A stretch of 64,000 nucleotides of DNA from Alphaproteobacteria bacterium (GTDB lineage: Bacteria > Pseudomonadota > Alphaproteobacteria > Rickettsiales > UBA8987), in contig JBKCHH010000005.1 of assembly GCA_046302855.1 (NCBI GenBank), positions 26-64,025 of the forward strand, read 5' to 3'. The notes under the pieces are model-generated. The model was not told the DNA's origin. It did no database searches and saw only the letters and a list, made by a program, of their open reading frames with translations. Position numbers and translations under genes: made by a program. This document shows positions 1,245-63,517 of this stretch, in pieces. Numbering within the stretch: position 1 is the stretch's first letter; every line of letters begins with the position of its first letter.

Positions 1245-1664
1245 ATGATTATTAAAAGTTTAAATGATTTAAAAAAATTCTTAAAAAGTTTCGCCAAACA
1301 AATATCTGGTAATGAAATTATTTTGCTAAAAGGTGGTTTAGGGCTTGGTAAAACTACTTTTGTAAAGGAGCTTTTAAAAATTCTGCACCCAAAACTTAAC
1401 CTTAGCGTAACTAGCCCCACCTTTACTATTTTGAACCTATATGAAGCAGAAAATAAAAAAATTTATCATTATGATTTGTATCGCATAAAATCAACAGCTG
1501 AACTTTATGAGATTGGCTTTTTTGATAATCTTGGTGAAGATTTAATTTTTATAGAATGGCCAGACTTAATAATTGATTACTTAAAAAAATCTAAATTAAA
1601 ATTCATAACTATAGAGTTAAAATTTGTTGGGGAAACAAGAGAGATTCTAATCAATGGCACTTAG
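1245..1664 (+). CDS. tsaE: tRNA t6A37 biosynthesis ATPase TsaE
   Basis: 139 aa. P-loop LKGGLGLGKTTFVKELL, then SPTFTI and YHYDLYR motifs typical of YjeE/TsaE. Confidence 0.85.
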   Translation: MIIKSLNDLKKFLKSFAKQISGNEIILLKGGLGLGKTTFVKELLKILHPKLNLSVTSPTFTILNLYEAENKKIYHYDLYRIKSTAELYEIGFFDNLGEDLIFIEWPDLIIDYLKKSKLKFITIELKFVGETREILINGT

Positions 1665-2376
1665 TGCCATGCACAAAAGGCGGATGCAAAAACAAGGTTA
1701 AAAAAGCAACCATAATTATTATTACGGCTAGAATTTTGGGCAAAATAATGGTGTTTTTTATTCTATCAATAATTTCTTTACCAACCACTCCGCTAGTTAC
1801 CATAGAGGGCAAGGTTCCAATACCAAAAAAAAGCATAATAATTCCACTACTTAATATATTATAATTTTGTAGGCTGGCGGAAGTGGTAAGGGCATAAAAA
1901 ATAGTGGAATAGACCATGCTGCAGGGCAACAAACCCCACACCATTCCGCTAAAAAACCAAGCTGGTTTGCTTTTGAATCTATCTAGCCTTGCCCCAATTT
2001 TGCTAACAGTTTTTTCTATTCTGCCAAAAAAACTAGTAAATAATTTTATGTTTGGCAAAAAATTTCCTATTTTAAAGGCAAGATACAAAAGGGTGAAACA
2101 GGCAATTAGCCTCAAGATACTTAAACCATAGCTTTGATTAATGTGGCCAACAAACTCTGCCCCTAAAAACCCCACCAAAATTCCAAACAACAGGTAAGAA
2201 AAAACTCTACCAAAATTATAGAGGAAAATTTTTATATAGTTCTTGTTCGCATTGGTAGTTATTCCAATGGAAGAGGCAATAGCCCCGCACATTCCAAGAC
2301 AGTGCAAACTAGCTGATAGCCCAAGTATCAACCCACTTAATGCATTTAAAGCTATTATGTAGATTTCTGGTGTCAT
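1651..2376 (-). CDS. polytopic membrane protein, DsbD_2 / TauE-SafE-like
   Basis: 241 aa with about 6-7 hydrophobic spans. HCLGMCGAIA and GLLPCSMVY motifs. 4-nt overlap with the upstream MetW-like ORF. Confidence 0.6.
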   Translation of the reverse strand: MTPEIYIIALNALSGLILGLSASLHCLGMCGAIASSIGITTNANKNYIKIFLYNFGRVFSYLLFGILVGFLGAEFVGHINQSYGLSILRLIACFTLLYLAFKIGNFLPNIKLFTSFFGRIEKTVSKIGARLDRFKSKPAWFFSGMVWGLLPCSMVYSTIFYALTTSASLQNYNILSSGIIMLFFGIGTLPSMVTSGVVGKEIIDRIKNTIILPKILAVIIIMVAFLTLFLHPPFVHGTKCH

Positions 2377-17690: not shown

Positions 17691-18248
17691 CTAAAAACTT
17701 AAAATATCCTTTTCCTTATCATGGAAAAGTTTTTCAAGCTCGGCTATATATTTATCGGTAAGTTTTTGCACTTGGTCAGAGCCTCTACGAAGATCATCTT
17801 CAGTTATTTCATCTTCCTTTTCTTGTTTTTTGAAAAAATCAATAGAATCCCGCCTAATGTTGCGAATAGCAATCCTAGATTCCTCTAAAAACTTAGAGGC
17901 AATTTTTACTAGCTCTTTTCTTCTCTCGCCACTTAGTTCTGGCATTGGTAGGCGAATTAAAGTGCCATCTACCACTGGGTTGATGCCAATTTGTGAATCT
18001 ATAATTGCCTTTTCAACCGCCTTTATATTTGCCTTATCCCACACCTGCAAAGAAATCATTCTTGCTTCTGGCACAGAAATGGTTGCAACATTGCTAAGTG
18101 GAGCTGGGCTACCATAAACCTCAACCCTAATATTATCAACTAGGCTAGCAGATGCCCTGCCGGTTCTAAGCCCAGATAACTTTTGCTTAAAAAAAGCAAC
18201 TGCTTTTTGCATTTTTTCTTCTGTTTCTTTAAGGCTATGGATTGTCAT
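17691..18248 (-). CDS. frr: ribosome recycling factor
   Basis: 185 aa. LSGLRTGRASASLVDNIRVEVYGS, IRNIRRD. Confidence 0.95.
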   Translation of the reverse strand: MTIHSLKETEEKMQKAVAFFKQKLSGLRTGRASASLVDNIRVEVYGSPAPLSNVATISVPEARMISLQVWDKANIKAVEKAIIDSQIGINPVVDGTLIRLPMPELSGERRKELVKIASKFLEESRIAIRNIRRDSIDFFKKQEKEDEITEDDLRRGSDQVQKLTDKYIAELEKLFHDKEKDILSF

Positions 18249-18260
18249 AAGACTTGCCCC

Positions 18261-18452
18261 TTATTCAACGATGAAAGCGGCTGGCTCTTCAAATATTTTT
18301 CTGCCATTATAATAGCCATCTGGCGAAATTTGATGCGGGCGAGAAAGCTCCCCCGAAGTAGCGTTTTCAACCAAATTCACTGCCTTTAAAGCATCGTGAG
18401 ATCTTCTCATGTTGCGACAAGATTTAGACTTTTTCTTTTTTGGAACTGCCAT
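18261..18452 (-). CDS. rpmF: 50S ribosomal protein L32
   Basis: 63 aa. [22 protein letters not shown]. Confidence 0.9.
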
Positions 18453-18550
18453 AAAATTTAAGGGTTAAATTAATATTTTTTTGTTGATATTTTAGTTAAA
18501 GTGTGTGTCTCTATACATTATAATAAACAAAATTCTACTATTTTTTTACT

Positions 18551-18994
18551 ATGAAAAAAATTATTTTATTACTTACCATTTCTGTTTTATTTTCTGCCTG
18601 TGAAAAAAATGTAAAAACGGGCTATATAATCGACCCCCTAAAGGTGGATCAAATAAAGGTGGGCAAAACAAAATCAGATACTGTAAGAAAAATTCTTGGC
18701 ACACCATCTTTTGTTTCAACCGCTAGTAATTTAGAATGGTATTATGTGGGTTCAGACCTAAAGCAAAAGCCAGTTACCAAGCCAAAGCTAACTAAAAACA
18801 CCGTGCTAATAATAAGGTTCGATAAAAAAGATGTGGTTTCCTACATTAGCGAAGAAGATAATATTAATAAGGTGCGGGATATAAAATTTGTGCAAGAATC
18901 CACCAAAACTGAAGGCAATAGCACCACCGCCGTTGAGCAGTTCTTAGGAAATTTAGGTAAGTATAACACTGCTGATGACAAAGACAGCAAGTAA
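18551..18994 (+). CDS. bamE: outer membrane protein assembly factor BamE (SmpA/OmlA lipoprotein)
   Basis: 147 aa. Lipobox LFSACE. GYIIDPLKVDQIKVGKTKSDTVRKILGTPSF. Confidence 0.7.
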   Translation: MKKIILLLTISVLFSACEKNVKTGYIIDPLKVDQIKVGKTKSDTVRKILGTPSFVSTASNLEWYYVGSDLKQKPVTKPKLTKNTVLIIRFDKKDVVSYISEEDNINKVRDIKFVQESTKTEGNSTTAVEQFLGNLGKYNTADDKDSK

Positions 18995-19008
18995 AAAATA
19001 ATTTCCCT

Positions 19009-19036
19009 CTTGAAATAATTTTTTATCATCCTAAAT
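19009..19036 (+). promoter_or_regulatory. RpoH (sigma32)-type heat-shock promoter upstream of groES
   Basis: CTTG-N17-CCTAAAT versus the alphaproteobacterial consensus CTTG-N17/18-CYTATNT (6/7 in the -10 part). About 35 nt upstream of the groES ATG. No CIRCE seen. Confidence 0.5.
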
Positions 19037-19069
19037 AGACCATCCAAACAATTAAAAGGAGAAAAAACA

Positions 19070-19369
19070 ATGTCTATAAGACCATTACATGATAGGCTTT
19101 TGGTAAAAAGGCTGGAAGAAGAAACCAAAACATCATCTGGTATTATAATTCCAGATTCTGCCAAAGAAAAACCAACTAAAGGCAAGGTGGTTGCCATTGG
19201 GCATGGTTATAGAAATGAAGAAACTGGCAAATTTACCCCGCTTGATGTTAAGGTGGGTGATGTAATTCTGTTTGCTAAATGGGGTGGCACAGAAGTAAAA
19301 TATAATGGCGAAGAATTGCTTATCTTAAAAGAAAGCGATGTTCTAGCTGTTGTTGATGAGAAGAAATAA
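19070..19369 (+). CDS. groES: co-chaperonin GroES
   Basis: 99 aa. [33 protein letters not shown]. Confidence 0.95.
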
Positions 19370-21064
<1,695 letters not shown>

Positions 21065-21073
21065 TCGCTAACA

Positions 21074-21290
21074 GTCATGAGCCGAGGGAGTCTCGCTGAA
21101 GCGATAGCGGAAGCAGACGACGCGGCAATCCAGACTAGCCTTCACCGTCATTGCGAGAAGTCTCGCTGAAGCGATAGCGGAAGCAGACGACGCGGCAATC
21201 CAGTTTATAAATACAATATTTTAGAATTTCTTTTTGAACTTTATTTACTGGATTGCTTCTGCACGAGCCTTGCTCTGCTAAGCTCATGAC
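21074..21290. repeat. composite type B palindromic element with tandemly duplicated left arm
   Basis: Left arm ...agtctcgctgaagcgatagcggaagcagacgacgcggcaatccag occurs twice (21074..21133 and 21147..21203). Outer termini are gtcatgagc / gctcatgac. Core ctggattgc. Confidence 0.8.
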
Positions 21291-21321
21291 GATCTATATT
21301 TAGCAAACACTTCTAACCCTC

Positions 21322-23475
21322 CTACTTCACCATTTTTCGAACAACATTTCTGGTGCCTTCGCCTATTTTGTTGCCTATTTGTTCGTTATCACCGGTAATT
21401 ATTTTGCCGACACTCTCTATACTTGCAATCTTACCGCCAAAGCCGAAAGATTGCCACAGGTTCACCATATTCTGTAGCAGGGCAAAAACAAAATATAGGC
21501 TAGCTAAAAACACTAGGAAGTAGCTAAATACATCGCTCCATTCTAAACGAACGCCACCCTCCTCTACATTCCCTTCGGTTGTTAACACTGGCACAAACAA
21601 GGTAAAGGTGCTAGCACCAGTAGTAGTAGCACTAGAAGAAGAGGCTACGCTAGATCCTGCACCCCCACCACCACCTTTATTATTAAGCACAGCCCCTGTA
21701 ATGCAATTTCCTATAGGGTTTACAGCCCCGCCCCCAGTTGGGTAACATTCAAAGTGTAAATGCACACCTGTACTTCTACCCGTAGTTCCCATATCTGCTA
21801 TTCTTGCCCCAGCCTCTACTATATCGCCCCTTTCCACTAAAAATTTATTTAAGTGAAGATACCTAGTGAAACCACCGTTACAATCCCACACTTCTAGTTC
21901 ATTACCCGCCTTAGAACCGGGGTAATCAGGAACAAGCCTATTAACTATACCGTAAACATTAGCACAAACTGGTGAACCTTTGTCCCAGGCAAGATCTATT
22001 CCCCAATGCATTCTACCCCATCTCCAGCCATAGCCTGAAGTAAATACATGGAAAGGAGCTGGATGGCACCTATCGCTAACAGCAAATCCCTTAGTCTTTG
22101 TTGCATCTGGATTGCAATCGGTAATTCTGCATCCTGGACCAGCCTTACCGCTACCAGGCGAGCCATTACAAGTAGCCAAAAATTTCTGTTTTTCAGCCTG
22201 ACTCAATCCCCCACCGCCACCATAGGCACCACTTGAAGTGGCACTGGATGATTGGTCTGAATTTTGTGTTTTGCCCCCAAGGATAGATTTTTTATCTATC
22301 TTACCTCCATTTATTACCGTCCAAGCATCACACAGGTTTTTACTACTTTTGTCTAATATATTGAAAGAAAAGAATAAAACCCCAACATAAATACCAAAAA
22401 ATAAGGCATTGCCAAATATTACTATGGTTAGCGTATTAAGCATTTTTCTAAATTTTTTGAAAATGGAAAGGGGGCCAAACAATGGGAGCAAAAGAATGGT
22501 GAGCAGAAACAATAGACTTGTTCCCACATAGATAAAAAATATGTTGATGGTAAGGCGAATTATATACCAGATAATCATTATTAGTATCAAAGCTAAGGCT
22601 AAGCCAAAGCCAAAGGAAAAAAACAGCACTATAAAGAAGGTGATTATTTTAAACTCTTTTGAAAAGGCTAATTGGTATAAGTTAAAACCACTCGCACAGG
22701 CTCCCTCGCCAGAAAAGATAACCAAGCCAAAAACACGCATTATAATGGTGCTTAGTTTTTTAAATACCACCAACAAAACCCCATCTTGCGAACTGGCATA
22801 ATAGGTGGGGTCATAGGCTTGTGAGGCACTAATTGCAATCCCTTCCCCTATTCCCCTTATGAACTTCATTAACTCTTCTACATTATCTATATTAATGGTG
22901 GCAAAGGCGAAAGAGGCGTAAAAAACGGTGGTGAAGAATTCTGATACTGGATTTTCTATTAAACCTAGTGAAAGCCTATAACCAAATAGAAAAATAAAAA
23001 CTATTACTATAGAGTAGCTAAGTGTTTTAATAAAATCATCCTCGAAAATTATCTTTCTTACCTCCTCCATATTTCTTGTTGCCTCATAGATTATACAATG
23101 GGCAATTTTTCCTAAAAAGGGGTCGTAATAGGCAATATTATTTTCATCACCACATTTCATACTATCACCCGCCAAAGACCAGTTTAGGGCAGTATTGCCA
23201 GTGCAATCTGCATAGGCTATAAGGTTTTTTTCATTAGCCTCGTTTAGGGCTTTTATTTTAGCTTGAATGGAAACAAGTAGCGATTGGTTATTGTTCTGCC
23301 TAGCTATGTCTTGTTGCTTGGCATAATCTTCCATTGTTTTAGCATAGGCCGTCATATCCGCCTTTGCCTTATTACATTGTTCTGGAGTGGGAGGGGTGGT
23401 GGCACCAAACCCAAAACTTGGCATTAAAACCAGCAGCAAGCATAACAGTATATATTTTATAGAAGCTCTTATCAT
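21322..23475 (-). CDS. polytopic membrane protein with embedded M23 (LytM-type) metallopeptidase domain
   Basis: 717 aa. Signal peptide, then at least six hydrophobic spans (residues about 150-380). Gly/Ser linkers. M23 motifs HWGIDLA (HxxxD) and GVHLHFE (HxH). A further C-terminal TM segment. Confidence 0.75.
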   Translation of the reverse strand: MIRASIKYILLCLLLVLMPSFGFGATTPPTPEQCNKAKADMTAYAKTMEDYAKQQDIARQNNNQSLLVSIQAKIKALNEANEKNLIAYADCTGNTALNWSLAGDSMKCGDENNIAYYDPFLGKIAHCIIYEATRNMEEVRKIIFEDDFIKTLSYSIVIVFIFLFGYRLSLGLIENPVSEFFTTVFYASFAFATINIDNVEELMKFIRGIGEGIAISASQAYDPTYYASSQDGVLLVVFKKLSTIIMRVFGLVIFSGEGACASGFNLYQLAFSKEFKIITFFIVLFFSFGFGLALALILIMIIWYIIRLTINIFFIYVGTSLLFLLTILLLPLFGPLSIFKKFRKMLNTLTIVIFGNALFFGIYVGVLFFSFNILDKSSKNLCDAWTVINGGKIDKKSILGGKTQNSDQSSSATSSGAYGGGGGLSQAEKQKFLATCNGSPGSGKAGPGCRITDCNPDATKTKGFAVSDRCHPAPFHVFTSGYGWRWGRMHWGIDLAWDKGSPVCANVYGIVNRLVPDYPGSKAGNELEVWDCNGGFTRYLHLNKFLVERGDIVEAGARIADMGTTGRSTGVHLHFECYPTGGGAVNPIGNCITGAVLNNKGGGGGAGSSVASSSSATTTGASTFTLFVPVLTTEGNVEEGGVRLEWSDVFSYFLVFLASLYFVFALLQNMVNLWQSFGFGGKIASIESVGKIITGDNEQIGNKIGEGTRNVVRKMVK

Positions 23476-24606: not shown

Positions 24607-25203
24607 ATGCGTATAAGTAGTGGGCTTTTAAAAGGAAGGAAAATCTCTTCCAAACTGCCGAATAACAAAGAACTAGAAGGCTTTCGCCCAACTTCTGGTA
24701 AGGTAAAACAGGCTATTTTTAACATAATAATTCACAACCAAAATTTTCCTGATAGGTTTTTACAAAGTGCAAATGTGCTAGATTTATGCTGTGGCACAGG
24801 CTCACTTGGTATAGAGGCAATTTCACGCGGGGCGTTAGGTGCCACCTTTATTGATAATAATATTGAAATTCTAAAATTAGCTGAAAAAAATGTGGCCCAT
24901 TTAGGGGCAGATTACGCTAAAAAAGCCAAGTTTTTACGCATGGACGCCTTTGAAATTCCACCCAAAAAGCCCACCCAAGCTGGGTTTGATTTAATTTTTT
25001 TAGACCCGCCCTATAAAGAGCCTAAAACCTATATTCTGCCTAACCTTATGGTTGATACTGGCTGGCTAAATAAAAATGGTTTTATAGTTTTAGAAACCAA
25101 TAAAAGTTTTGAGATAAAAGAATTAAGCCCCAAATTAAAACTGCTGATTGAGAAAAAATACAATAACACTAAGGTGTTTATTTTTGGGTATAATCTTCTC
25201 TAA
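24607..25203 (+). CDS. rsmD: 16S rRNA (guanine966-N2)-methyltransferase RsmD
   Basis: 198 aa. RPTSGKVKQAIFNI, LDLCCGTGSLGIEAISRGA, IFLDPPY. Confidence 0.85.
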   Translation: MRISSGLLKGRKISSKLPNNKELEGFRPTSGKVKQAIFNIIIHNQNFPDRFLQSANVLDLCCGTGSLGIEAISRGALGATFIDNNIEILKLAEKNVAHLGADYAKKAKFLRMDAFEIPPKKPTQAGFDLIFLDPPYKEPKTYILPNLMVDTGWLNKNGFIVLETNKSFEIKELSPKLKLLIEKKYNNTKVFIFGYNLL

Positions 25204-25720
25204 CATAAACTGGCTCTATGTTATTGGTGGTAAGATGTTGAAACTTATGATAAAAACTTATCATATCTTTGGCTGAGAAATCTATTTCATCAAATTCATT
25301 TGCATCTTTTAATGTTATTTCGCTGATTGCCTTCAAATTCTTATCAAATTTTTGATGAAAAATTTGCCCCCTTTTGGCATCTTGCTTTATTTCTATTGGG
25401 TTTAGCCCATCGTATAATTTGAATGCCAAAAGTTGTGTTGAGGTTATTCCTATCAACTGGGTATTCATAGCCAGCCTAAAGCCTATGGCGGTTGAAATGG
25501 CAATTCTAATTCCGGTAAAGGTTCCGGGGCCTAAATTTACTAGAAGTGTTTTAATATCTTGGTGCTTTAGATTAGTTTTTTTTATTAACTGATTGATTTT
25601 TAACATCAAAACTTTGGAGGTATTTTCTTTTATTGCAGAATCTGCATCTTCAATAACCTCGCCATTATTTTCTATAGCTACTGAATAAATAGAATGGGCG
25701 GTGTTAATGGCTAGGAGCAT
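25178..25720 (-). CDS. tsaB: tRNA t6A37 biosynthesis protein TsaB
   Basis: 180 aa. LVNLGPGTFTGIRIAISTAIG. Starts 42 nt after the rplO stop, in the position normally held by secY. Confidence 0.75.
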   Translation of the reverse strand: MLLAINTAHSIYSVAIENNGEVIEDADSAIKENTSKVLMLKINQLIKKTNLKHQDIKTLLVNLGPGTFTGIRIAISTAIGFRLAMNTQLIGITSTQLLAFKLYDGLNPIEIKQDAKRGQIFHQKFDKNLKAISEITLKDANEFDEIDFSAKDMISFYHKFQHLTTNNIEPVYVREDYTQK

Positions 25721-25762
25721 AAACTTCTTCTAATGAACCTAATAAGATTAACAACCAATAAA

Positions 25763-26248
25763 CTATCCAACCAAGGTTTCTTTTGGCAGTTCCACTAGAA
25801 CACCGGCTGATTTTAAAGTATCGATAGCCTTTTGAGAAGCGTTATCTACCTTAATGGTGAACTTTGTTTTGCTTTTTATTTCGCCACGGGCAAGCAGTTT
25901 AATGCCATCTTTATTATTAGCCACAAGACCTAGCTTTTCTAAGCGAGTAGAATCTAAAGTATCCCCTGCTTTTATTCTACCAGATTCAAGCAGACGATTT
26001 AAATCATCTAGGTTGATTACTTCAAATTCTTTGCGATTATAATTGTAGAAGCCCCTTTTTGGTAAACGGCGGTGAATTGGCATTTGCCCACCTTCAAAAC
26101 CATTTATGGCAACGCCACTTCTTCCCTTTTGACCCTTACCACCACTTCCGCAAGTTTTACCTTTGCCAGAACCAATGCCACGCCCTACCCTTTTAAATTT
26201 TTTGTTAGAGCCTTCGGGTAATCTTATTTCATTTATTGCTAATCCCAT
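25763..26248 (-). CDS. rplO: 50S ribosomal protein L15
   Basis: 161 aa. KRVGRGIGSGKGKTCGSGGKGQKGRSG. Operon position. Confidence 0.95.
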   Translation of the reverse strand: MGLAINEIRLPEGSNKKFKRVGRGIGSGKGKTCGSGGKGQKGRSGVAINGFEGGQMPIHRRLPKRGFYNYNRKEFEVINLDDLNRLLESGRIKAGDTLDSTRLEKLGLVANNKDGIKLLARGEIKSKTKFTIKVDNASQKAIDTLKSAGVLVELPKETLVG

Positions 26249-31175: not shown

Positions 31176-31847
31176 CTATTTTATTAATCCTTTAATTCTT
31201 TTTTCGTGCGAATAGGGATCGTGAGCGGCAATCTCGCCCTTATAAATCCATACCTTTACACCAATTACGCCATAAGTAGTATGAGCTTCTGAAGTAGCGT
31301 AATCAATATCTGCCCTTAAAGTATGAAGAGGCACCTGACCTTCTCTATACCATTCCATTCTAGCAATTTCAGAACCATTTAACCTGCCAGAACAGTTAAT
31401 TCTGATGCCCTTAGCACCAAACTTCATTGTGGTTTGCACCGCTTTTTTCAGAGCCTTTCTAAAAGCAACCCTTCTTTCAATTTGCTGAGTGATAGAATCT
31501 GCAACAATTTTAGCGTCCAGTTCTGCTTTTTTAATTTCAACTATGTTAATTTTTACCTCATCTTTAGTAATTTTACCAACTTCTTTTTTGATGGCATCTA
31601 AATCAGCCCCTTTTTTACCAATTACGATACCGGGTTTTGAAGTAAAAATTACTATCAACATTTTATTGGAAGATCTTTCAATTATCACCCTACTTACACC
31701 AGCGTTTTTTAGCTTTTCAGTGGCAATTTTTTTAATTTGAAAATCTTCGTGCAATTTGGTTTTATACAGTTTTTTTGCAAACCATCTTGAACTCCAAGTT
31801 TTGTTAATTCCTAAACGGAAACCTATTGGATTTACCTTCTGACCCAT
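31176..31847 (-). CDS. rpsC: 30S ribosomal protein S3
   Basis: 223 aa. [13 protein letters not shown]. Confidence 0.95.
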
Positions 31848-31848
31848 A

Positions 31849-32544
31849 CTATACAGCCCTCCTAGCAGTTGCTTGTAATTCTGTTACTTCAATAGTTATA
31901 TTGCTGAAAGGTTTTCTTATTTTAAATGCCCTACCCCTTGCACGGGTGTGGATTCTTTTCATTACCAAACCCTTGCCAACAATAACTTTACTAATTACCA
32001 AATTATCTATGTTTAGATTATGATTGTTTTCTGCATTGGCAATAACTGATTTTAATAGCTCTTTTACTGGCTTCGCGATTCTTTTTCTAGAAAAGTTTAG
32101 CTGCGTTAAAGCATCTGCCACATTTTGATTTCTAATTAGCGCTGCCACTAAATCTAATTTTCTAGGTGAAGTGCGAAGAAGTTTTAAGGTTGCAAATGCC
32201 TTTTTTTCGCCCGCCTTACTTACATTAGCTACCCTTTTATTTTTGCCCTTTCTTGCTTGCTTTTCAGCACCAGTAAGTTCTTTTGTTAGGGGCTTTGCTT
32301 CAATTACTTCATGCTTGTGATCATGGCTGTGACCGTGAGAATGATTATGATTATGATCGTGGCTATGGTCATGCCCGTGGTCGTGACCATGATCATGGTG
32401 ATGACGGTGATCATGCCCATGATGATCTTCATGATGATGAATAGGGTCTTTTTTATTTAACTCATTCACATTTTTTAAATGCTTATGATCATCATGCGAA
32501 GCCGAATGAGGAAAATTGCTATCTGTTTTTTTATCCTTTGTCAT
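31849..32544 (-). CDS. rplV: 50S ribosomal protein L22 with ~100 aa His/Asp-rich N-terminal extension
   Basis: 231 aa. The C-terminal ~115 aa is the uL22 core ([20 protein letters not shown]...[26 protein letters not shown]). The ATG lies 2 nt after the rpsS stop. 28 His in the first 80 residues. Confidence 0.9.
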
Positions 32545-32546
32545 AA

Positions 32547-32849
32547 TTATTTTTTAGCTGCGGTTGAAGCGGCGGCTTGTGCCATCACTTTTTTATCGTT
32601 AGGCGTATGCCCTTTGAATATGCGAGTTGGCGAAAATTCACCAAGTTTATGCCCTACCATCTGTTCTGATACCAAAACAGGCACATACTGTTTACCATTG
32701 TAAACGCCAAAAGTAAAGCCCACAAACTGAGGCAATATGGTAGATCTTCTAGATCTAGTTTTAATTACCGAGTGAGTGTTTTTTGCGTTAAGTGCTTTTT
32801 TTAATAGATGGGAATCTACAAAAGGCCCTTTCCAAACTGATCTTGTCAT
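32547..32849 (-). CDS. rpsS: 30S ribosomal protein S19
   Basis: 100 aa. [21 protein letters not shown]. Confidence 0.95.
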
Positions 32850-50404: not shown

Positions 50405-52195
50405 CTAAAACTTAATTTCTCTACTTTCTGGAATAACCGGCAATATAAGTTGCGATGGGTATTCTTTTGTGTGAAAAATTTTCTGCTTGGCAACTTTTGA
50501 TTTAGTAGCAGTAGGTATGAATTCCCCCGTATTAAGGTTGCGATCATAGCGGGGGAAATTGCTACTTGATACTTCCAGCCTTATTTTATGCCCTTTTAAG
50601 AAAACATTACTGGTTGGCCATAGCTCTATTTCAATTTTAGTGGGCGCATTGCCATTAGATGCTTTGTAGGTTTGGCGTAATATTCCATCTGAAAGATTAT
50701 ACGCCAAGCCATCGGGGTGAACATCTACTAGCTTTGCGGTGAAATCTGTTGATGGCGCATCGGTTGAAACGTAGAGTATGGCTTTAATTGGGCCCGTTAC
50801 CTCAATTTTTTTAGATAACGCTGCGGTGGTGTAGACCAACACATCTGGTCGTTCTTCAATTGTATTTTGAAGTTCAATTCCTGCTCTATTACTTAACATC
50901 GCTCCCCCAGCTGTAGGTACTGGATTAGTGGGGTCATAAATATATGCATCATGTTCAGCTTTATCGTTAGTTGAAGAAATACTCAAAAAGCCATCACCAT
51001 TTAGAGTGTTCGCTTTGCCGTTACTGTGCAGATAAAATGGAACATATTTTGTGCGAGCTAATGGCCACTGGTTTTCATCACGCCAGCGATTTTCCCCCAT
51101 AACAAAAATCTTTACCTTTGGCATATTTAGTGGCGCGTTCGTTATACCCAGCACATAATCAAACCATGCGATGCTTTGGGTAACGCTTTGACTTCGGTAT
51201 GGCACTTCTTCATTTGAATTTGGCAGCTTTACAGATTTAGCATGTCCCCACGGTCCAATAACTAGGCGTGTTTCTTTGGCAACAGATGGTTTCGCCTTGG
51301 TGGCAATGGTGCTAAAATCTTCAAGTTGCGTGGGCAAGAATGGATCAAACCAACCAGCCATAAGTAATACGGGGGCCTGAATTGTTTGGGCTCTATGCTC
51401 ACCATCAATTTTTTTCCAATAATCATTTTTTTGAGTATTTAATGCCCAGTCATTGAAGAAATTCGTATCGCCAATAGCTTCATCATCAGCTTCAATAGTC
51501 GGCAAGTGATTTACACCACGGTCTAAATCTTTAAGATCAACATCCCTATCTTTTTTGCCACGACTGCGTATTGCCCAATTGATAGCGCTTTCCAGCGAGA
51601 AGGCATTTCCTGGATAAAACATTTTATAAAAATTGCTGCTGGCAATTTGTATAAAAAAAGCATTTACGCTTGGATTTTTTTGATCAGCAACTGCCCACTG
51701 GGTATAGCCAAATGCAGAGCCACCCCACATGGCAAGGCGTCCGTTATACCAAGGCTGGCTTGCTACCCATTTAAGGGTTTGAATTCCATCTTCGCGTTCA
51801 TGCATCAGCGGATAAAATTCACCGCCAGATTTATATCTACCACGTGTACCTTGTAGTACTACCGTGTAACCTCTGCTCGCCCAGTAACGCGCGATAATGC
51901 CAGAGCGCGCCTGATTACTAATGGTATCACTAAGCGGAATTCGTACTAAAATTGTTGGGGTTTTTTTAAGTCCTTTTGGGTGATATATATCCGCCACCAA
52001 TTTAACCCCATCACTGGTTTTAAAGCTAATTGTTTCCTTCGTTACACTATAATCTGCTTGCCGCACACCTTCCGAAGAAAGTAAAAATTTATTTGCAACA
52101 AAATCAGTGGTAATCGCACAGCCAGAAAGCACTAAAATAACAGTTGCCAGTTTTATGGCATTGAAAGTACGTTTTGTTAATTTTAAAATGTCCAA
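50405..52195 (-). CDS. CocE/NonD-family (S15 X-Pro dipeptidyl-peptidase-like) alpha/beta hydrolase, lipoprotein
   Basis: 596 aa. Lipobox VLSGCA. GYTVVLQGTRGRYKSGGEF. Nucleophile elbow WGGSAFGY. C-terminal WPTSNVFLKGHKIRLEVSSSNFPRYDRNLNTG. Confidence 0.8.
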   Translation of the reverse strand: MDILKLTKRTFNAIKLATVILVLSGCAITTDFVANKFLLSSEGVRQADYSVTKETISFKTSDGVKLVADIYHPKGLKKTPTILVRIPLSDTISNQARSGIIARYWASRGYTVVLQGTRGRYKSGGEFYPLMHEREDGIQTLKWVASQPWYNGRLAMWGGSAFGYTQWAVADQKNPSVNAFFIQIASSNFYKMFYPGNAFSLESAINWAIRSRGKKDRDVDLKDLDRGVNHLPTIEADDEAIGDTNFFNDWALNTQKNDYWKKIDGEHRAQTIQAPVLLMAGWFDPFLPTQLEDFSTIATKAKPSVAKETRLVIGPWGHAKSVKLPNSNEEVPYRSQSVTQSIAWFDYVLGITNAPLNMPKVKIFVMGENRWRDENQWPLARTKYVPFYLHSNGKANTLNGDGFLSISSTNDKAEHDAYIYDPTNPVPTAGGAMLSNRAGIELQNTIEERPDVLVYTTAALSKKIEVTGPIKAILYVSTDAPSTDFTAKLVDVHPDGLAYNLSDGILRQTYKASNGNAPTKIEIELWPTSNVFLKGHKIRLEVSSSNFPRYDRNLNTGEFIPTATKSKVAKQKIFHTKEYPSQLILPVIPESREIKF

Positions 52196-53271
52196 TTTAA
52201 CCCCAACCCTTTGATGTTATTTTCGCCTAAATTCACCATTCCTTTTTTACCAAACATGATGGGGCTATCATTAATATCGTGTTCTAACAGGTGCGTACCA
52301 TAAGCGCCTTCCTGAGCGATTAGGATGTCACGATATGCATTTGCCAAAGATATAGCTACTCGCGTTAAGATGCTGGTTTCGCCAACTTGTGCGCCGATGA
52401 TGAATTTAATGCCGCGTTTCCTGCATTCTTCCGCTATATCAAGTGAGCGAAGCAACCCACCCATTTTTGAAATGCGAATGTTGGGTATCCAAATGTTGGA
52501 ATCGCCTGATAAATGGTCAAGGTCTGCAATTTTTAAAAAACTCTCATCCAGAATAATTTTGCAGCCCAAATGTTCTGCCAGTGTTTTTAAGCCCACATAA
52601 TCACTAATTTTTATTGGTTCTTCAACTGCCCAAAAATATTTGGCAATAGAAGATAAATAAGTGATTGCTTCATCTGCATTATTCCATAAATTATTTGCAT
52701 CCAGCCTTATTTTAGCACTTGGTAGTGTGGTGCTAATGGCTTTGATATTTGCTTTATCAATAGAGGCATCACCAGAGATTTTCACCTTGAAATCATTAAA
52801 ACCAATCTGAATATATTGCGCCAGCTGCGCCGCAAAAACTTTGGGGTTAGATATACCAAGCACGGCGGTGTAATGAAAGCTGCCCTGAATTTCTGGAATA
52901 CCCAACACCGCTTCAATAGATTTATTTTCTAGTTTGCCAAGCAAATCAAGAATTGCCGTTTCTATGGCGCACCAAGCGGCAGGGTTTTTGTCAATAGCGG
53001 GTTGGTTGGCAGATATAAACCTTTTCAGTGAATCAATACCATCTACTTTTACTATGTCATGATGGTGGTTTGCGATAAAATCCATGCATGATTTTATACT
53101 CTCACCCGTAACATAACTGCGTGGGCAGCCCTCACCATAGACAATTACACCACTTTCTGAATAGGCTAGTGCTATTATAGTTTCTGTTTTAGTTCTCTGC
53201 GCTGATGCGTGCTTGAATGAAACACGAAACGGTATTTCCAGTTTCTTTAGTTCTATTTTTTTTAATTTCAT
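52183..53271 (-). CDS. enolase-superfamily enzyme, muconate-lactonizing-enzyme subgroup (dipeptide epimerase / N-acylamino acid racemase-like)
   Basis: 362 aa. FKVKI (KxK), RLDANNLW, VEEPI, ILDESF and RISKMGG give the MLE-subgroup ligand/base pattern. ATGA overlap with the GH3 gene. Confidence 0.75.
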   Translation of the reverse strand: MKLKKIELKKLEIPFRVSFKHASAQRTKTETIIALAYSESGVIVYGEGCPRSYVTGESIKSCMDFIANHHHDIVKVDGIDSLKRFISANQPAIDKNPAAWCAIETAILDLLGKLENKSIEAVLGIPEIQGSFHYTAVLGISNPKVFAAQLAQYIQIGFNDFKVKISGDASIDKANIKAISTTLPSAKIRLDANNLWNNADEAITYLSSIAKYFWAVEEPIKISDYVGLKTLAEHLGCKIILDESFLKIADLDHLSGDSNIWIPNIRISKMGGLLRSLDIAEECRKRGIKFIIGAQVGETSILTRVAISLANAYRDILIAQEGAYGTHLLEHDINDSPIMFGKKGMVNLGENNIKGLGLNWTF

Positions 53272-54944
53272 GGCTGTATATGCTCCTGAAATGGAAATTG
53301 TACATCGGCGCGGTATTGCAATTTTATCACCTTAAATTGCCCTTCGCGTTGTCCCGCTTTAATGCAAAGTGATTTATAGGCTTCAAGCGTTCCTTTTTTT
53401 AAGCGTTTTACATCCGCAAACTTTATTCTGCCGCTTTGTGCTTTTGATAGATATTCAATATTTAGCTCACCTAGATGGGAATTTAGTTGTTGTGCGAAAC
53501 TTAAAACATCAAATTTATCTGCTGATTCAATGTAAAGCGTATATGAGAAATCTTGCTGATCAGCCAGCATCATAAAGAATTCAGGCGTGATATTATGGGC
53601 TTTTGCAGCTTCGGTAGCGGCAGTAATTACTTGGCTTTCATAAAGCTTTTCACCTGTAAAACTGGTAACACCTTTGCCTTTTTGCACAAAAGCGATAGTT
53701 GGAGTATTTTGGTAACGGCCTGTAACTTCAATAATATCATTGATAAAATAGCGGTAGAGTCCATTTGACGTAGTGACGATGATGTAGTATTTTTTGCCCA
53801 TCTCTAGCTGCGACAGTAGTAAGATTTTCTTATTACCACCATCCCAACTTTCCACTTGCGCAAATTCGAAGAAATTATCCTGCAATGTAGGAATACCAAG
53901 GTTACGCTCACAATCAATAGTGATAGTTCCTCTAAATTCGCTTGAAAGATAGCCCATTTCAACAATTTTTGTTTCGGGTAATAGTTGTTTTTTTAGTTTT
54001 GGTATTAATAGTGCGCAGTTACCACTTGTCCAGGTTACAACACCTTGCAAATTCGGCCATATATCAGTAAAATGCAAATTTCCTTTATTTTTTTTAAGCA
54101 ATTTAAGTGCTTTTGCCCTTTGTGGATCAGGTGTAGCATAGTCTGCAAATTGCTGTTTCTGCTTGCTATTTAGCGTAACATTAAGCGCATCAAAATTGCC
54201 TGTTTCTATAAATTCTATTATTGCATCGCCTTGTTGCTGAATTATTTCGCTAAGGCGAATTAATGTGGATGGGTTTGCAGTGCCTATACAAGAAATATAA
54301 TCTTCACGCATTGCAAATGCTGCCATAAGGCTATACTTTGTCTCATAATTTTCAATTTCAAATACTGCAGGTTTTAAGACATATTTTGAAAAAATAATAT
54401 CTGGCATGTTTTCATAGATTAGCCCTGACATTGAGCCATAAGGCGTTTCATCACTTAAATGCCCTTCGATGGCGGGGCTGACAATAGCCAAAATTTTACC
54501 AGAAAAAATTTTAGGAATATCTCGGTACTGTATAAATGAAAAAATACGCTGGGCGCGTTTGTATGAATTAATCGTGCCTTTTAAAATAGGAATATATTTA
54601 GGTTTGCCCGTAGTGCCGCTTGTTTGTGCATACATTAGTGGTTTTTCGGGAACGATAGCGAAATCACCTGTTGTAATTTGCTTTTCAATGTATGGGCGCA
54701 AGTCTTCATAGGTATGCACGGGAACGCTTTTAATGAAATCTCCTACATTACGGATAGAGGAAAAATTATAATGCTTACCAAACTCAGTGTTTTTATTTTG
54801 TTTTAGTATGCGCCTAAAAATATCTTTTTGGCATTTATCTGGATTACGAGCATTACTAATAAGCGAACGCAAAAGAATATGCTTCACCAGCAGCATTTTT
54901 AGCCACATTAAACTATTGGTGATTTTTTGTTTGCGATAACTCAT
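53268..54944 (-). CDS. GH3-family acyl-acid amido synthetase (adenylate-forming)
   Basis: 558 aa. YAQTSGTTGKPKYIP, GYLSSEFRG, GLYRYFINDIIEVTG. ATGA overlaps at both ends. Confidence 0.8.
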   Translation of the reverse strand: MSYRKQKITNSLMWLKMLLVKHILLRSLISNARNPDKCQKDIFRRILKQNKNTEFGKHYNFSSIRNVGDFIKSVPVHTYEDLRPYIEKQITTGDFAIVPEKPLMYAQTSGTTGKPKYIPILKGTINSYKRAQRIFSFIQYRDIPKIFSGKILAIVSPAIEGHLSDETPYGSMSGLIYENMPDIIFSKYVLKPAVFEIENYETKYSLMAAFAMREDYISCIGTANPSTLIRLSEIIQQQGDAIIEFIETGNFDALNVTLNSKQKQQFADYATPDPQRAKALKLLKKNKGNLHFTDIWPNLQGVVTWTSGNCALLIPKLKKQLLPETKIVEMGYLSSEFRGTITIDCERNLGIPTLQDNFFEFAQVESWDGGNKKILLLSQLEMGKKYYIIVTTSNGLYRYFINDIIEVTGRYQNTPTIAFVQKGKGVTSFTGEKLYESQVITAATEAAKAHNITPEFFMMLADQQDFSYTLYIESADKFDVLSFAQQLNSHLGELNIEYLSKAQSGRIKFADVKRLKKGTLEAYKSLCIKAGQREGQFKVIKLQYRADVQFPFQEHIQP

Positions 54945-55828
54945 TTCGCTTTATCAATACCTTTAATAAACGGGGTTTTCATTTGGGTTATAAAGTCATA
55001 AGGATAGTTTCTGTTCAGTAGCCCAAGGTCGCCAACTTTCCTTTCTTTCGGGTAAAAAAAGGTACCGAACAAAATATCCCACACAATAACATTGTTACCA
55101 TAATTACTGTTAGATTCTTTAATGGTTTTAGAGTGGTGCCAGCGATGCAGCTCAGGACCACTGATGATATAGTTCAGCCAGCCCAGTTTAGTATCAACAT
55201 TACTGTGCTGAAAAAATCCTTTAATGGAATATACCACAAAATAAAGCGTCAGCACTTGTTCTGATACTCCAAGCAAGATGAATGGCAGCGCATCACAAAG
55301 AAATTGCAGTGATTTATCGATGGGGTGGAATCTGCCCACATTCAGCCAATATAACTTTTGCACCGAATGATGCACGGCATGAACACGCCAAAGCGGGATC
55401 CACATATGCGAGGCGCGGTGCAGCCAGTAACGAAGAAAATCGGCTAAAAACATCATAAGTAGCATCTGTAACCATACTGGCCAGGTGTGTGGCCATAAGC
55501 CTGTTAGTTCAAGTCCATATGCCTTTGCAAACGATACCAAATATACAGCTGTGAGTATGGTTAAAAGTTTCGGCAACACCACTTGTATAAGTAGCATGAA
55601 TGCAAGGTCGGTCTTGATTTCACTGCGATTAGGAAGCCATTCTTTTCGGTAAGGCAAAACAATCTCAAACAACGTAATTAGGCCAAGCCCGCCAATAACA
55701 CCTGCTGTAAAGCTGCTTAAGGTAAAACTTACCCCATAATGAATCAGTCCATAATACAGCCCAAGGCTTACCGCCATAACCGCTGGATACACCGTCCAAG
55801 TTAGAATATTTCTGATTTTGTTATTCAT
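54941..55828 (-). CDS. fatty acid hydroxylase superfamily (sterol desaturase-like) membrane di-iron enzyme
   Basis: About 295 aa from ATG 55828 (MNNKIRN), which overlaps the upstream stop by 8 nt. His boxes HRASH, HAVHH, HRWHH. Four or more TM spans. Confidence 0.8.
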   Translation of the reverse strand: MNNKIRNILTWTVYPAVMAVSLGLYYGLIHYGVSFTLSSFTAGVIGGLGLITLFEIVLPYRKEWLPNRSEIKTDLAFMLLIQVVLPKLLTILTAVYLVSFAKAYGLELTGLWPHTWPVWLQMLLMMFLADFLRYWLHRASHMWIPLWRVHAVHHSVQKLYWLNVGRFHPIDKSLQFLCDALPFILLGVSEQVLTLYFVVYSIKGFFQHSNVDTKLGWLNYIISGPELHRWHHSKTIKESNSNYGNNVIVWDILFGTFFYPKERKVGDLGLLNRNYPYDFITQMKTPFIKGIDKAK

Positions 55829-56267
55829 ACGCCCCCTTTTTATTACCATTTTTATAGTGAAAATGCCCAACCAGCAAAAAGAATGATGCCAGCACGATAT
55901 GAAAGAATGCAGGAATATGCGCACCCAACCAAGGGTGGCTAGTTGCAAATGTGAACCCCGCAATTAGCCGAAGCACCATCACCACAAAATAGATGCCACC
56001 CAACGCAAGCATCCATATACCTAATTTGCGCCGCGCTAAAATGTGCCCCTTTACAAAACCAGCAATTACCCAAATCATAACAAGAATAATTAGAATTTGT
56101 GATACTAGCAGCCAAGGGTAAGCTAGCTTACCACTATACCACGCCTCAAACGGCGGTAAAAAAGGCAGGTTATAAAATTTCTGGATCAACTGCACAATAA
56201 CGCGGAAAACGAATAGAATAAAGCAAATGCAAAGCCAAAGGGTATAATGCGTAACAAAAGATTTCAT
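55821..56267 (-). CDS. 4-TM membrane protein with conserved-looking intramembrane His residues (unknown family)
   Basis: 148 aa. First gene of the block. His in or near TM segments (THYTLWL; HIPAFFHIVLASFFLLVGHFHY). Its layout loosely recalls b-type cytochrome subunits. Confidence 0.5.
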   Translation of the reverse strand: MKSFVTHYTLWLCICFILFVFRVIVQLIQKFYNLPFLPPFEAWYSGKLAYPWLLVSQILIILVMIWVIAGFVKGHILARRKLGIWMLALGGIYFVVMVLRLIAGFTFATSHPWLGAHIPAFFHIVLASFFLLVGHFHYKNGNKKGAYE

Positions 56268-62164: not shown

Positions 62165-62566
62165 ATGGAAGATAATTTTAACCTAAAGCACGAAAATTCT
62201 ACTGAATATGATTCTAAGCAAACAAGCCCAGAAACAGCCCTGTGGCGGGCGGTAATTACGCAGGCTTTAATGGACGCTGGCTCTTCCTCTAAAAAACAAG
62301 AAATGAACTATTCTAGGTATCATGCCAAATCTTGGTTGCAGGGCGATAGTAAAGATTTTGAACTAGTGTGTGATTTAGCAGGTTTAAACCCATATTATGT
62401 TTCTAAAAACTCTAAAAAGGCAATAGCGAAAAAATGCACTTGGCGAAAAACTAAAAAGGAAAAGGCTAGAAACTATATAAATATAATTACCCCAGATTCT
62501 ATTGATGGAATTATTACCATACCTATGCAGGCGGGGTTTCCTTCTGGTGCATCCGACGGGATTTGA
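62165..62566 (+). CDS. hypothetical phage-like protein; 3' end runs 22 nt into tRNA-Arg
   Basis: 133 aa, AGGAG RBS. The central [16 protein letters not shown]...[24 protein letters not shown] is of a kind seen in small prophage proteins (recognition by memory only). The last ~20 codons look like read-through. Confidence 0.4.
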
Positions 62567-62621
62567 ACCCATAACCTTTGCCTTCGGAGGGCAATGCTCT
62601 ATCCAGTTAAGCTACGGATGC
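62545..62621 (-). tRNA. tRNA-Arg (anticodon CCG)
   Basis: 77 nt. Acceptor gcatccg/cggatgc, anticodon arm uugcc-cuCCGaa-ggcaa, T-loop ttcaaat, encoded CCA. Confidence 0.9.
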
Positions 62622-62672
62622 TTGGGTGTAGCGATAATAGCCCTTCAATAACCATAATTATAAAATAAATCT

Positions 62673-63080
62673 ATGATTACTTTATTCGGTAGCCTTATTG
62701 GCTTTTTTGGCTCAATAATTCCAGACATTGTAAAAATATTTCAAGATAGGCAAGATAAAAGGCACGAGCTTGAGATATTAAAGTTGCAAATTGAGCGAGA
62801 AAAAACCATCCACGGACAAAAGCTAGAGGCAATTTCTCAGCAGGCAGATATTGCAGAGGCGAAAGTTTTGTATCAAACCTATAAAACAGAAATAAAATGG
62901 GTGGACGCCCTAAATGGCACTGTTCGCCCTGTTATTGCCTATAGTTTCTTTTTTCTATACGCCTTTTTAAAAATTGAACTTAGCGATAATTTGTGGACTG
63001 AGGAGGACCAAGCCATCTTCGCCGGCATCATAAGTTTTTACTTTGGGCAAAGAAGCATGTGGAAAATGCGTGGAAGATAA
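62673..63080 (+). CDS. holin-like protein (3-TM, GTA/phage-release holin type)
   Basis: 135 aa. N-terminal IIPDIVKIF..RHELEILKLQIERE, central coiled region, hydrophobic RPVIAYSFFFLYAFL and IFAGIISFYFGQRS. Immediately precedes the lysozyme. Confidence 0.55.
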   Translation: MITLFGSLIGFFGSIIPDIVKIFQDRQDKRHELEILKLQIEREKTIHGQKLEAISQQADIAEAKVLYQTYKTEIKWVDALNGTVRPVIAYSFFFLYAFLKIELSDNLWTEEDQAIFAGIISFYFGQRSMWKMRGR

Positions 63081-63085
63081 GTTTT

Positions 63086-63517
63086 ATGAAAACCAACACT
63101 TACGGCATTGAAATTATTAAGCATTTTGAAGGGTTTTCTTCCACACCCTATCTATGCCCTGCGGGCTACAAAACTATTGGCTATGGGCATTTAATAAAAG
63201 CTAATGAAAACTTCACCAGTATTACTTTAACTGAAGCGGAAGAATTACTTATAAAAGATTTAAGAAAAGCAGAAAATTCCGTGATAAATTTAATCAATAC
63301 CACACTGCATGAAAATCAATTTTCCGCCCTTGTTTCCTTTGTATATAATTTAGGTGGCGGAGCCTTGCAAGGCTCAACCCTTCGGATGAAAATTAATCGT
63401 GGTGAAACAAATGTAGAAAATGAATTTTTAAAATGGGTATATGCCAATGGTAAAAAATTGCGTGGCTTACTAAACAGGCGTATTGCAGAAGCGGAATTAT
63501 TTGCTAAGATTGATTAA
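63086..63517 (+). CDS. GH24 phage-type lysozyme (endolysin)
   Basis: Start at ATG 63086, just after the holin stop. GIEIIKHFEGFSSTPYLCPAGYKTIGYGH, NQFSALVSFVYNLG. Confidence 0.8.
   Translation: MKTNTYGIEIIKHFEGFSSTPYLCPAGYKTIGYGHLIKANENFTSITLTEAEELLIKDLRKAENSVINLINTTLHENQFSALVSFVYNLGGGALQGSTLRMKINRGETNVENEFLKWVYANGKKLRGLLNRRIAEAELFAKID

Follow-up and report, generated by a model that had tools for sequence, protein, structure and literature searches.

A histidine-rich N-terminal arm on ribosomal protein uL22 in an uncultured alphaproteobacterial lineage

Where does a ribosomal protein begin, and what might a long series of histidines be doing at its N terminus? These questions are raised by the rplV gene in a 64-kb stretch of DNA from an alphaproteobacterium (contig JBKCHH010000005.1; the whole stretch of 64,000 nucleotides [nt] that was analyzed is referred to here as the window). 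In this gene, the codons for the conserved core of ribosomal protein uL22 (L22) are preceded by a long stretch rich in codons for His, and a preliminary description of the sequence had read the whole as a His-rich domain fused to uL22. The comparisons described below support that fusion, in that the extension lies in the same frame as the core, is conserved, and bears the marks of purifying selection. As for its role, we lean slightly toward a ribosome-tethered metal buffer or reservoir as the best explanation of the extension, which we call here the uL22 His arm.

The rplV reading frame and its start

The rplV gene of the window sits between rpsS and rpsC in the S10 operon (Table 1), and the same order is found in L085-L089, of which L085-L087 are from the same species as the window and L088 is from a sister clade. 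Pfam Ribosomal_L22 (PF00237) matches residues 118-220 of its product over the full length of the model, with 123 bits against a cut-off of 28 (E 7e-36). An AlphaFold model built from a 9-sequence alignment places the first strand from residue 115 on, helices in 127-175, and strands at 182-200 and 206-222, corresponding to the uL22 alpha/beta domain and its beta-hairpin. When this core was compared by Foldseek with the uL22 chains of solved 70S structures and with 1bxe, the target-normalised template modeling (TM) scores were 0.85-0.90. By domain, fold, and operon position, then, the window protein belongs to uL22, and the core begins close to residue 115, where the preliminary description had put it.

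Table 1. Coordinates of rplV, its neighbors, and the parts of its product in the window
Feature	Coordinates	Strand	Basis or assessment
rplV, complete open reading frame (ORF), 231 amino acids (aa) plus stop; uL22 with N-terminal His-rich extension	31849..32544	-	ORF list; Pfam PF00237; identical protein in public data
rpsS (uS19), upstream gene; TAA stop 2 nt before the rplV ATG	32547..32849	-	
rpsC (uS3), downstream gene, 1 nt after the rplV stop	31176..31847	-	
N-terminal cap, residues 1-35; first 8 residues (MTKDKKTD) invariant in both clades	32440..32544	-	Protein and codon alignments
Dense (HX)n tract, residues 36-78: 24 His, 7 Asp, 4 Gly, 3 Ser, 2 Asn, 0 Cys	32311..32439	-	
Linker, residues 79-117, with invariant motif	32194..32310	-	Alignment with ordinary 127-137-aa L22
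uL22 core domain, residues 118-220	31885..32193	-	Pfam; AlphaFold predicted local distance difference test (pLDDT) score 79-93 over most of core; Foldseek
ATT codon (Ile81), start in NCBI record MFN5351106.1 (151-aa product)	32302..32304	-	Judged incorrect

The start codon of the full-length frame is an ATG at 32544-32542. This agrees with the preliminary description, which had placed an ATG directly behind the rpsS stop without giving the strand. The only other in-frame ATG, GTG, or TTG codon upstream of the core is GTG26, so that the earlier statement that no further ATG intervenes holds as well, and from after codon 26 to the core there is no canonical in-frame start at all. In the sister clade, codon 26 is GTT. 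The length of the open frame had also been called noteworthy, and at the local base composition, a stop-free run of 117 random codons has a probability of ~ 3e-4. From tuf to rplO, all 22 genes of the operon begin with ATG and are separated by gaps of 1-32 nt; half of them are missing a Shine-Dalgarno sequence and rely on coupling.

A point missed by the preliminary description is that the NCBI annotation of this contig uses a different, internal start. Record MFN5351106.1 takes the ATT codon for Ile81 as its start and, since this codon comes just behind the His tract, leaves the tract out, while the JGI gene calls for rplV give the long form of 227-235 aa. If translation did begin at this ATT, or at another non-canonical codon, the series of His codons would be an untranslated spacer between rpsS and rplV. 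The 151-aa product in the NCBI record speaks for such internal initiation, as does the fact that ATG1 likewise has no Shine-Dalgarno sequence. However, none is found upstream of ATT81 either, the ATT81 codon is absent from the sister clade, and a missing Shine-Dalgarno sequence is shared with half of the genes of this operon. Internal initiation would also open a 242-nt gap in an operon whose other gaps are no longer than 32 nt, and no internal promoter or terminator stands out. The supposed spacer shows codon-level purifying selection, in-frame insertions and deletions (indels) only, and an invariant N-terminal octapeptide, as detailed below. We consider internal initiation extremely improbable; the ATT start in MFN5351106.1 appears to be an annotation artefact that comes from choosing the start codon by homology.

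Composition, conservation, and origin of the arm

The first 80 residues of the rplV product contain 28 His, as the preliminary description had counted, together with 12 Asp. Within the dense block that it had delimited, 24 of the 43 residues (56%) are His. The other 21 proteins of the operon have a mean His content of 1.6%; hence, the probability of at least 28 His among 80 residues is ~ 7e-30. Residues 1-99 include 20 overlapping HxH motifs and 5 HH motifs. Cys is absent from the protein in all six sequences compared, leaving neither CxxC pairs nor a Cys-Cys anchor. In the AlphaFold model, residues 1-111 have pLDDT values below 50 and no secondary structure, and the arm is thus predicted to be intrinsically disordered.

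The long form of uL22 is found in two clades whose proteins are ~70% identical, and both keep the N-terminal MTKDKKTD, the His tract, and the linker motif. Between the window and L003, a member of the sister clade, nonsynonymous divergence (dN) in the extension is 0.31 and synonymous divergence (dS) is ~2, giving a ratio (omega) of ~0.16, compared to an omega of 0.13 for the core. The His tracts of these two sequences retain 74% amino acid identity despite saturated synonymous sites, and CAT and CAC interchange freely at tract codons while His stays. Across six sequences, 19 of the 28 His residues in the extension (21 of 30 in the whole protein) are invariant, and the number of extension His remains at 26-30 while the length spans 89-96 residues. 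Comparison of the window with L085-L087 from the same species gives, for the extension, 11 synonymous and 3 nonsynonymous changes along with an in-frame 12-nt deletion (4 codons, HDHG) and, for the core, 7 synonymous changes and no nonsynonymous ones. Indels between all pairs of sequences are multiples of 3, and those between clades range from 3 to 24 nt.

The preliminary description had named frame-disrupted extensions in close relatives as potential counterevidence and had suggested looking for repeat-length polymorphism between strains. No disrupted frame was found: the extension is in frame in all 9 distinct long-form sequences, which come from more than 20 contigs of independent JGI, ENA, and Logan samples, and its length varies in whole codons. 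As these contigs derive from different samples, the long form is not an assembly artefact. At the level of sequence, these data indicate that the arm is real, translated, and under purifying selection, and that the run of 26-30 His is itself a feature under selection.

A separate observation concerns the DNA itself. A 31-nt stretch at 32235-32265 (minus strand) is identical in the window and L003, though synonymous sites elsewhere are saturated, and L085 and L088 each differ in it by one synonymous change (GCG and AAA, respectively). Constraint at the DNA level was considered for this stretch and is weakened by these synonymous variants. Strong codon preference combined with protein constraint could suffice to explain the identity, and there may be a role at the RNA level.

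Alignment with other L22 proteins suggests how the arm arose. Ordinary alphaproteobacterial L22 proteins, 127-137 aa in length, start with M-G/S-K, which aligns with K99-G100-K101 of the window protein; therefore, an addition of ~98 residues has taken place in front of this start. The closest relatives that lack a tail, whose cores are 65-67% identical, have only an empty spacer of 12-13 nt between rpsS and rplV. Tandem Repeats Finder reports an array with a period of 6 at 32341-32440 (16.7 copies, 61% matches), the degenerate unit of which is ATGATC on the plus strand and hence GATCAT (Asp-His) on the coding strand. Such a degenerate array, combined with the 12-nt length difference between strains, suggests slippage as the mode of growth; the arm probably arose from a GATCAT hexamer that was inserted between rpsS and the original M-G-K start of rplV and then expanded. 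Gene fusion from a small upstream His-rich ORF, which we also considered, is unsupported, the tail-less relatives having nothing between rpsS and rplV.

An expansion of this kind might simply be tolerated: a GATCAT microsatellite could have grown, harmlessly and with no function of its own, in a solvent-exposed and unconstrained N terminus. The degenerate repeat, its 12-nt length polymorphism between strains, the indels of 3 to 24 nt between clades, and the predicted disorder of the product are all consistent with this, as is the presence of further ribosomal protein extensions in the operon, such as the Lys-rich tails on L4, L23, L29, and L30. A neutral repeat, however, would have decayed or lost its frame. 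Instead, clades with saturated synonymous sites agree in 19 of the 28 extension His, the omega of the extension is as low as that of the core, and synonymous changes outnumber nonsynonymous ones 11 to 3 in the population. The non-repetitive flanks, MTKDKKTD and the linker motif, are likewise invariant, and the His number keeps to 26-30 at any length. We regard a functionless expansion as unlikely.

The His codons could also matter as codons. If the 28 of them sensed histidyl-tRNA charging in the manner of a his leader, uL22 and the coupled downstream ribosomal proteins would track the histidine supply, and a gene with so many His codons toward its 5' end, in an operon with tight coupling, would suit such a sensor. 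Yet the His codons alternate with others and form no uninterrupted run, the encoded peptide continues in frame into the core, and the minus strand has no terminator or antiterminator. The mRNA is not unusually structured (z = -1.43), and the spacer residues and flanks of the tract are under selection as well. We give this sensing role almost no credence. A hisL-type leader peptide, tried as an identity for the tract, is ruled out by the in-frame fusion to the core and by the lack of a terminator.

Two further candidates arise from the repeat. The self-complementary GAUCAU units suggested a role in RNA structure, which the same z value does not favor. An antisense ORF at 32283-32444 (plus strand) encodes 53 aa rich in Asp, His, and Gly. 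Owing to the self-complementary GATCAT unit, it mirrors the His tract, and it is almost certainly no real gene.

A possible metal-binding role

In the 50S subunit, uL22 has its globular domain on the solvent face, where it rings the tunnel exit together with uL23, uL24, and uL29. In the model that we favor, uL22 would be made from the ATG next to rpsS with a lineage-specific, disordered arm of ~98 residues. Given this location of the globular domain beside the exit, a single flexible, multivalent arm of imidazole and carboxylate groups should be exposed there on each ribosome. Tracts of the (HX)n type bind Ni(II), Zn(II), Co(II), and Cu(II), and the arm would reversibly bind several divalent transition-metal ions (Zn, Ni, Co, or Cu), forming a buffer or reservoir whose size tracks ribosome number. 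We infer metal binding, the identity of the metal, and a storage or buffering role from the composition of the tract and from its motif resemblance to the tracts of HypB, LarC, SlyD, and PA4063. The preliminary description had likewise proposed a metal buffer, sensor, or store, with Ni, Zn, and Co as the candidate metals. With no Cys and an HDH/HGH/HSH pattern, Zn and Ni fit equally well.

The resemblance can be followed through several searches. Among PDB sequences, those that best match the arm are a His tract in PA4063, a DUF2796 protein of Pseudomonas aeruginosa (E 5.5e-5), and the tail of SlyD. PA4063, which we take to be a periplasmic zinc-binding protein, shares with the arm a His-rich loop (HEHEHEH), but it has another fold and the similarity is limited to that loop. 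A word-index search with the arm alone gave 5 compositional matches and did not recover the query protein itself. These matches include a fragment that we identify as HypB-like from its N-terminal motif (MCGHCGC... followed by HGHGHSHDHGHDH) and a protein that has a Pfam PF01969 domain (LarC-type nickel insertion) and His inserts. Pfam also gives a weak match of the arm to the His loop of ZIP transporters. Histidine-rich metal tracts are recognized by a His content of at least 25-45%, by HxH or HH motifs, and by intrinsic disorder in the apo form; the uL22 tract exceeds this His content and has such motifs, and it is predicted to be disordered.

By analogy, the closest functional precedent of the uL22 arm is HspA, the GroES of Helicobacter. 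The His/Cys-rich extension of HspA binds nickel and serves for its storage or sequestration; when it is deleted, cellular nickel drops and hydrogenase maturation suffers (PMC3856676). Like uL22, HspA of H. pylori is an essential and abundant housekeeping protein with a lineage-specific, dispensable-looking His-rich tail. It differs in that the host protein is a co-chaperonin and that the tail is C-terminal, shorter, and contains Cys, whereas the uL22 arm is N-terminal and has none. HspA is, moreover, tied to NikR and hydrogenase, and no such link is known for the uL22 arm.

Other known systems share parts of this picture. The nickel-storage proteins Hpn and Hpn-2 of H. pylori have a comparable His fraction (47% in Hpn [PMC3856676]), disorder, and multiple HxH-type sites; they are free-standing, however, with Cys-Cys motifs, poly-Gln in Hpn-2, and no homology to uL22, whose tract is fused to a core. 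HDHGHDHSH-type dipeptide repeats are common to the arm and the His stretches of HypB, LarC, SlyD, UreE, and CooJ, but those are carried on GTPase, peptidyl-prolyl isomerase, or insertase domains, which supply a particular enzyme with metal, while the partner here is the ribosome. The ribosome has itself been described as a mobilisable Zn pool by way of its C+ proteins (PMC11672702). These Zn-ribbon proteins (L31, L33, L36, S14, and S18, with Zur-regulated C- paralogues) offer the same principle of a mobilisable metal reservoir scaled to ribosome number. Each C+ protein, though, holds one structural Zn through CxxC pairs and is exchanged for a paralogue, whereas a disordered poly-His arm could hold several ions and no paralogue of the arm-bearing uL22 is known. 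Classification of the uL22 arm itself as a C+ Zn ribbon is ruled out, as it contains no Cys.

Several points weigh against a metal reservoir. The likeness of the arm to known metal-binding tracts is compositional, without homology, and the 64-kb window contains no genes for hydrogenase, urease, Zur, NikR, or metal transporters. Other ribosomal proteins of the lineage carry low-complexity, Lys-rich extensions, suggesting a general tolerance, and the tract differs in length between strains, as expected of a slippage-prone repeat. The rplV gene of the window is the only rplV seen, and a search of 5.8 billion proteins returned no near-identical tail-less uL22 core; still, a second, ordinary rplV may exist elsewhere in the genome, beyond the window.

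The sole gene of the window with a conceivable metal or thiol link encodes a membrane protein of the DsbD_2 family (PF13386) that contains the motif HCLGMCG. It lies at 1651-2376 (minus strand) beside a gene for a MetW-like methyltransferase, and nothing ties it to rplV.

The chemistry of the arm admits a second use. Its computed net charge over residues 1-99 shifts from -2.0 at pH 7 to +9.9 at pH 6, and a disordered segment tethered, in the model, to the 50S surface could bind rRNA or neighboring ribosomes upon acidification, in hibernation or condensation; alternatively, it could compensate structurally for a lineage-specific change in rRNA. The many ribosomal protein extensions of this lineage would be in keeping with a structural or pH-responsive arm. 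The strict HxH spacing with Asp, Gly, Ser, and Asn, however, is the pattern of metal tracts and is unlike that of rRNA-binding tails, and the tails of rRNA-binding type in the same operon are Lys-rich. We consider a structural or pH-responsive role improbable.

A third possibility is that the arm is a precursor, cleaved after translation to free an Hpn-like, His-rich peptide in step with the synthesis of ribosomal proteins. N-terminal processing of a ribosomal protein does occur in Firmicutes, where the N terminus of L27 is removed by Prp; we know of no precedent for a cleaved uL22 precursor. The arm is a separable, disordered module of roughly the size of Hpn, and the conserved junction with the core might, speculatively, be a processing site. 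However, no protease gene is associated with it, and the junction is conserved because it aligns with the normal basic N terminus of alphaproteobacterial L22. Cleavage of the arm seems to us very improbable.

Finally, the arm might play an active part at the tunnel exit, either by handing Zn or Ni from its metal-loaded form to nascent metalloproteins or by letting metal or pH gate ribosome activity, dimerisation, or hibernation. We hold such an active role to be quite improbable, and a metal buffer or reservoir tethered to the ribosome remains the explanation toward which we lean.

Distribution, host lineage, and implications

The search of 5.8 billion proteins returned three 90%-identity clusters that span the whole query, and their members are the two clades described above. 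An exhaustive HMMER search with a six-sequence profile against 1.84 billion 50%-identity representatives gave 9562 L22 matches, of which the best 150 were inspected. A single representative (P0003, 444 bits), standing for one 50%-identity cluster, matched over the full length, and the arm is accordingly rare; the second-best match, at 190 bits, has an internally duplicated core and is probably a mis-assembly. Among these best 150 are thirty other N-extended L22 proteins, none with a His-rich extension: they are chimeras, frameshift products, or proteins with Lys/Ala-rich extensions. Some of the other N-extended bacterial uL22 proteins (P0134, P0136, P0279, and P0242) resemble the window protein in having a disordered, low-complexity N-terminal extension, but theirs are Lys/Ala/Pro-rich, of the rRNA-binding type. 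On this sample, His-rich L22 maps to one narrow clade, and since the inspection covered the best 150 of 9562 matches, independent cases may occur in other phyla.

Neither a His-rich L22 nor any other His-rich ribosomal protein was found described in the literature, in line with the preliminary description, whose author was aware of no such L22; in the databases, too, none appeared outside this one lineage. Metagenome contigs scanned with an alignment of the arm and with a 27-nt probe from the stretch identical in the window and L003 gave no match, the collection evidently being without these contigs. A scan of genome contigs with the whole protein was dominated by the universal ANAENNHN pattern and was uninformative about close relatives. 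Two long matches from Microvirga (L005 and L006; query residues 34-225) were rejected as tblastn read-through into the S19 frame, the Microvirga L22 being an ordinary protein of 128 aa.

The GroEL of the window has a relative at 92% identity, which we assume to be the sister clade of the long-form L22, followed by relatives at 81% and 78%; named genera such as Sphingomonas and Parasphingopyxis are reached only at 73-76%. The nearest GroEL relatives do not share the gene order of the window, whose G+C content is 37%. As identities to named genera are only 73-76%, these sequences place the host in a deep, uncultured alphaproteobacterial lineage, with the His arm confined to a narrow clade within it. 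In the 78% relative (L091, the 2.1-Mb contig ERZ25072999), a 1090-aa ankyrin-repeat protein is encoded near groEL, at 18240-21512; together with the small genome (~2.1 Mb), this hints that the wider lineage is perhaps host-associated.

Several other ribosomal proteins of the operon are also unusually long, all of them encoded on the minus strand. L23 (33706-34170; 154 aa) has a Lys-rich N-terminal extension of ~55 aa, and L4 (34177-34980; 267 aa) a Lys-rich C-terminal tail of ~60 aa. The length of L30 (26268-26576) falls from 102 aa in the window to 98 aa in L085 and to only 69 aa in L088 of the sister clade; L29 (30503-30757) has 84 aa, and S19 (32547-32849) has 100 aa with an Ala-rich tail. 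The lineage thus seems prone to ribosomal protein extensions, of which only that of L22 is His-rich.

Three other regions of the window deserve mention. The spc operon ends at rplO and is followed by a TsaB-like gene (25178-26248, minus strand; Pfam PF00814 on the L085 homologue); the usual secY-adk-rpsM-rpsK-rpoA order does not come after rplO, so that the spc/alpha cluster is broken in the window. Near the window edge, a tRNA-Arg(CCG) gene (62545-62621) adjoins a small membrane ORF (62673-63080), possibly a holin, which is followed by a phage-type lysozyme gene (PF00959; 63059-63517), and the region 62545-63517 (features on both strands) may be a prophage or gene-transfer-agent remnant. At 52183-55963 (minus strand), genes for an OlsE-like hydroxylase and an OlsH-like (GH3) protein, neither of which reaches its family cut-off, adjoin genes for a racemase or epimerase of the enolase superfamily and for a CocE/NonD hydrolase, and this may be a cluster for ornithine-lipid or amino-lipid modification.

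As far as our searches show, the uL22 arm is the first case of a His-rich, metal-type tail on a ribosomal protein. Extensions like it are probably under-counted in databases, given that the NCBI annotation trims this one back to an ATT codon. The arm is in effect a natural His tag on the 50S subunit, and transferred to Escherichia coli uL22, it would allow tag-free purification of ribosomes by immobilized metal affinity chromatography. Its expected position beside the tunnel exit makes co-translational metallation a concrete and testable idea. If the metal-binding proposal is true, uL22 would be the second case, after HspA of Helicobacter, of an essential housekeeping protein recruited for metal handling, and the idea of the ribosome as a zinc reservoir, so far built on single structural Zn ribbons, would come to include a poly-His store of high capacity. 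Should the arm bind metal, each ribosome in this clade would offer several exchangeable metal sites, and the ribosome pool would perhaps constitute a sizeable metal buffer.

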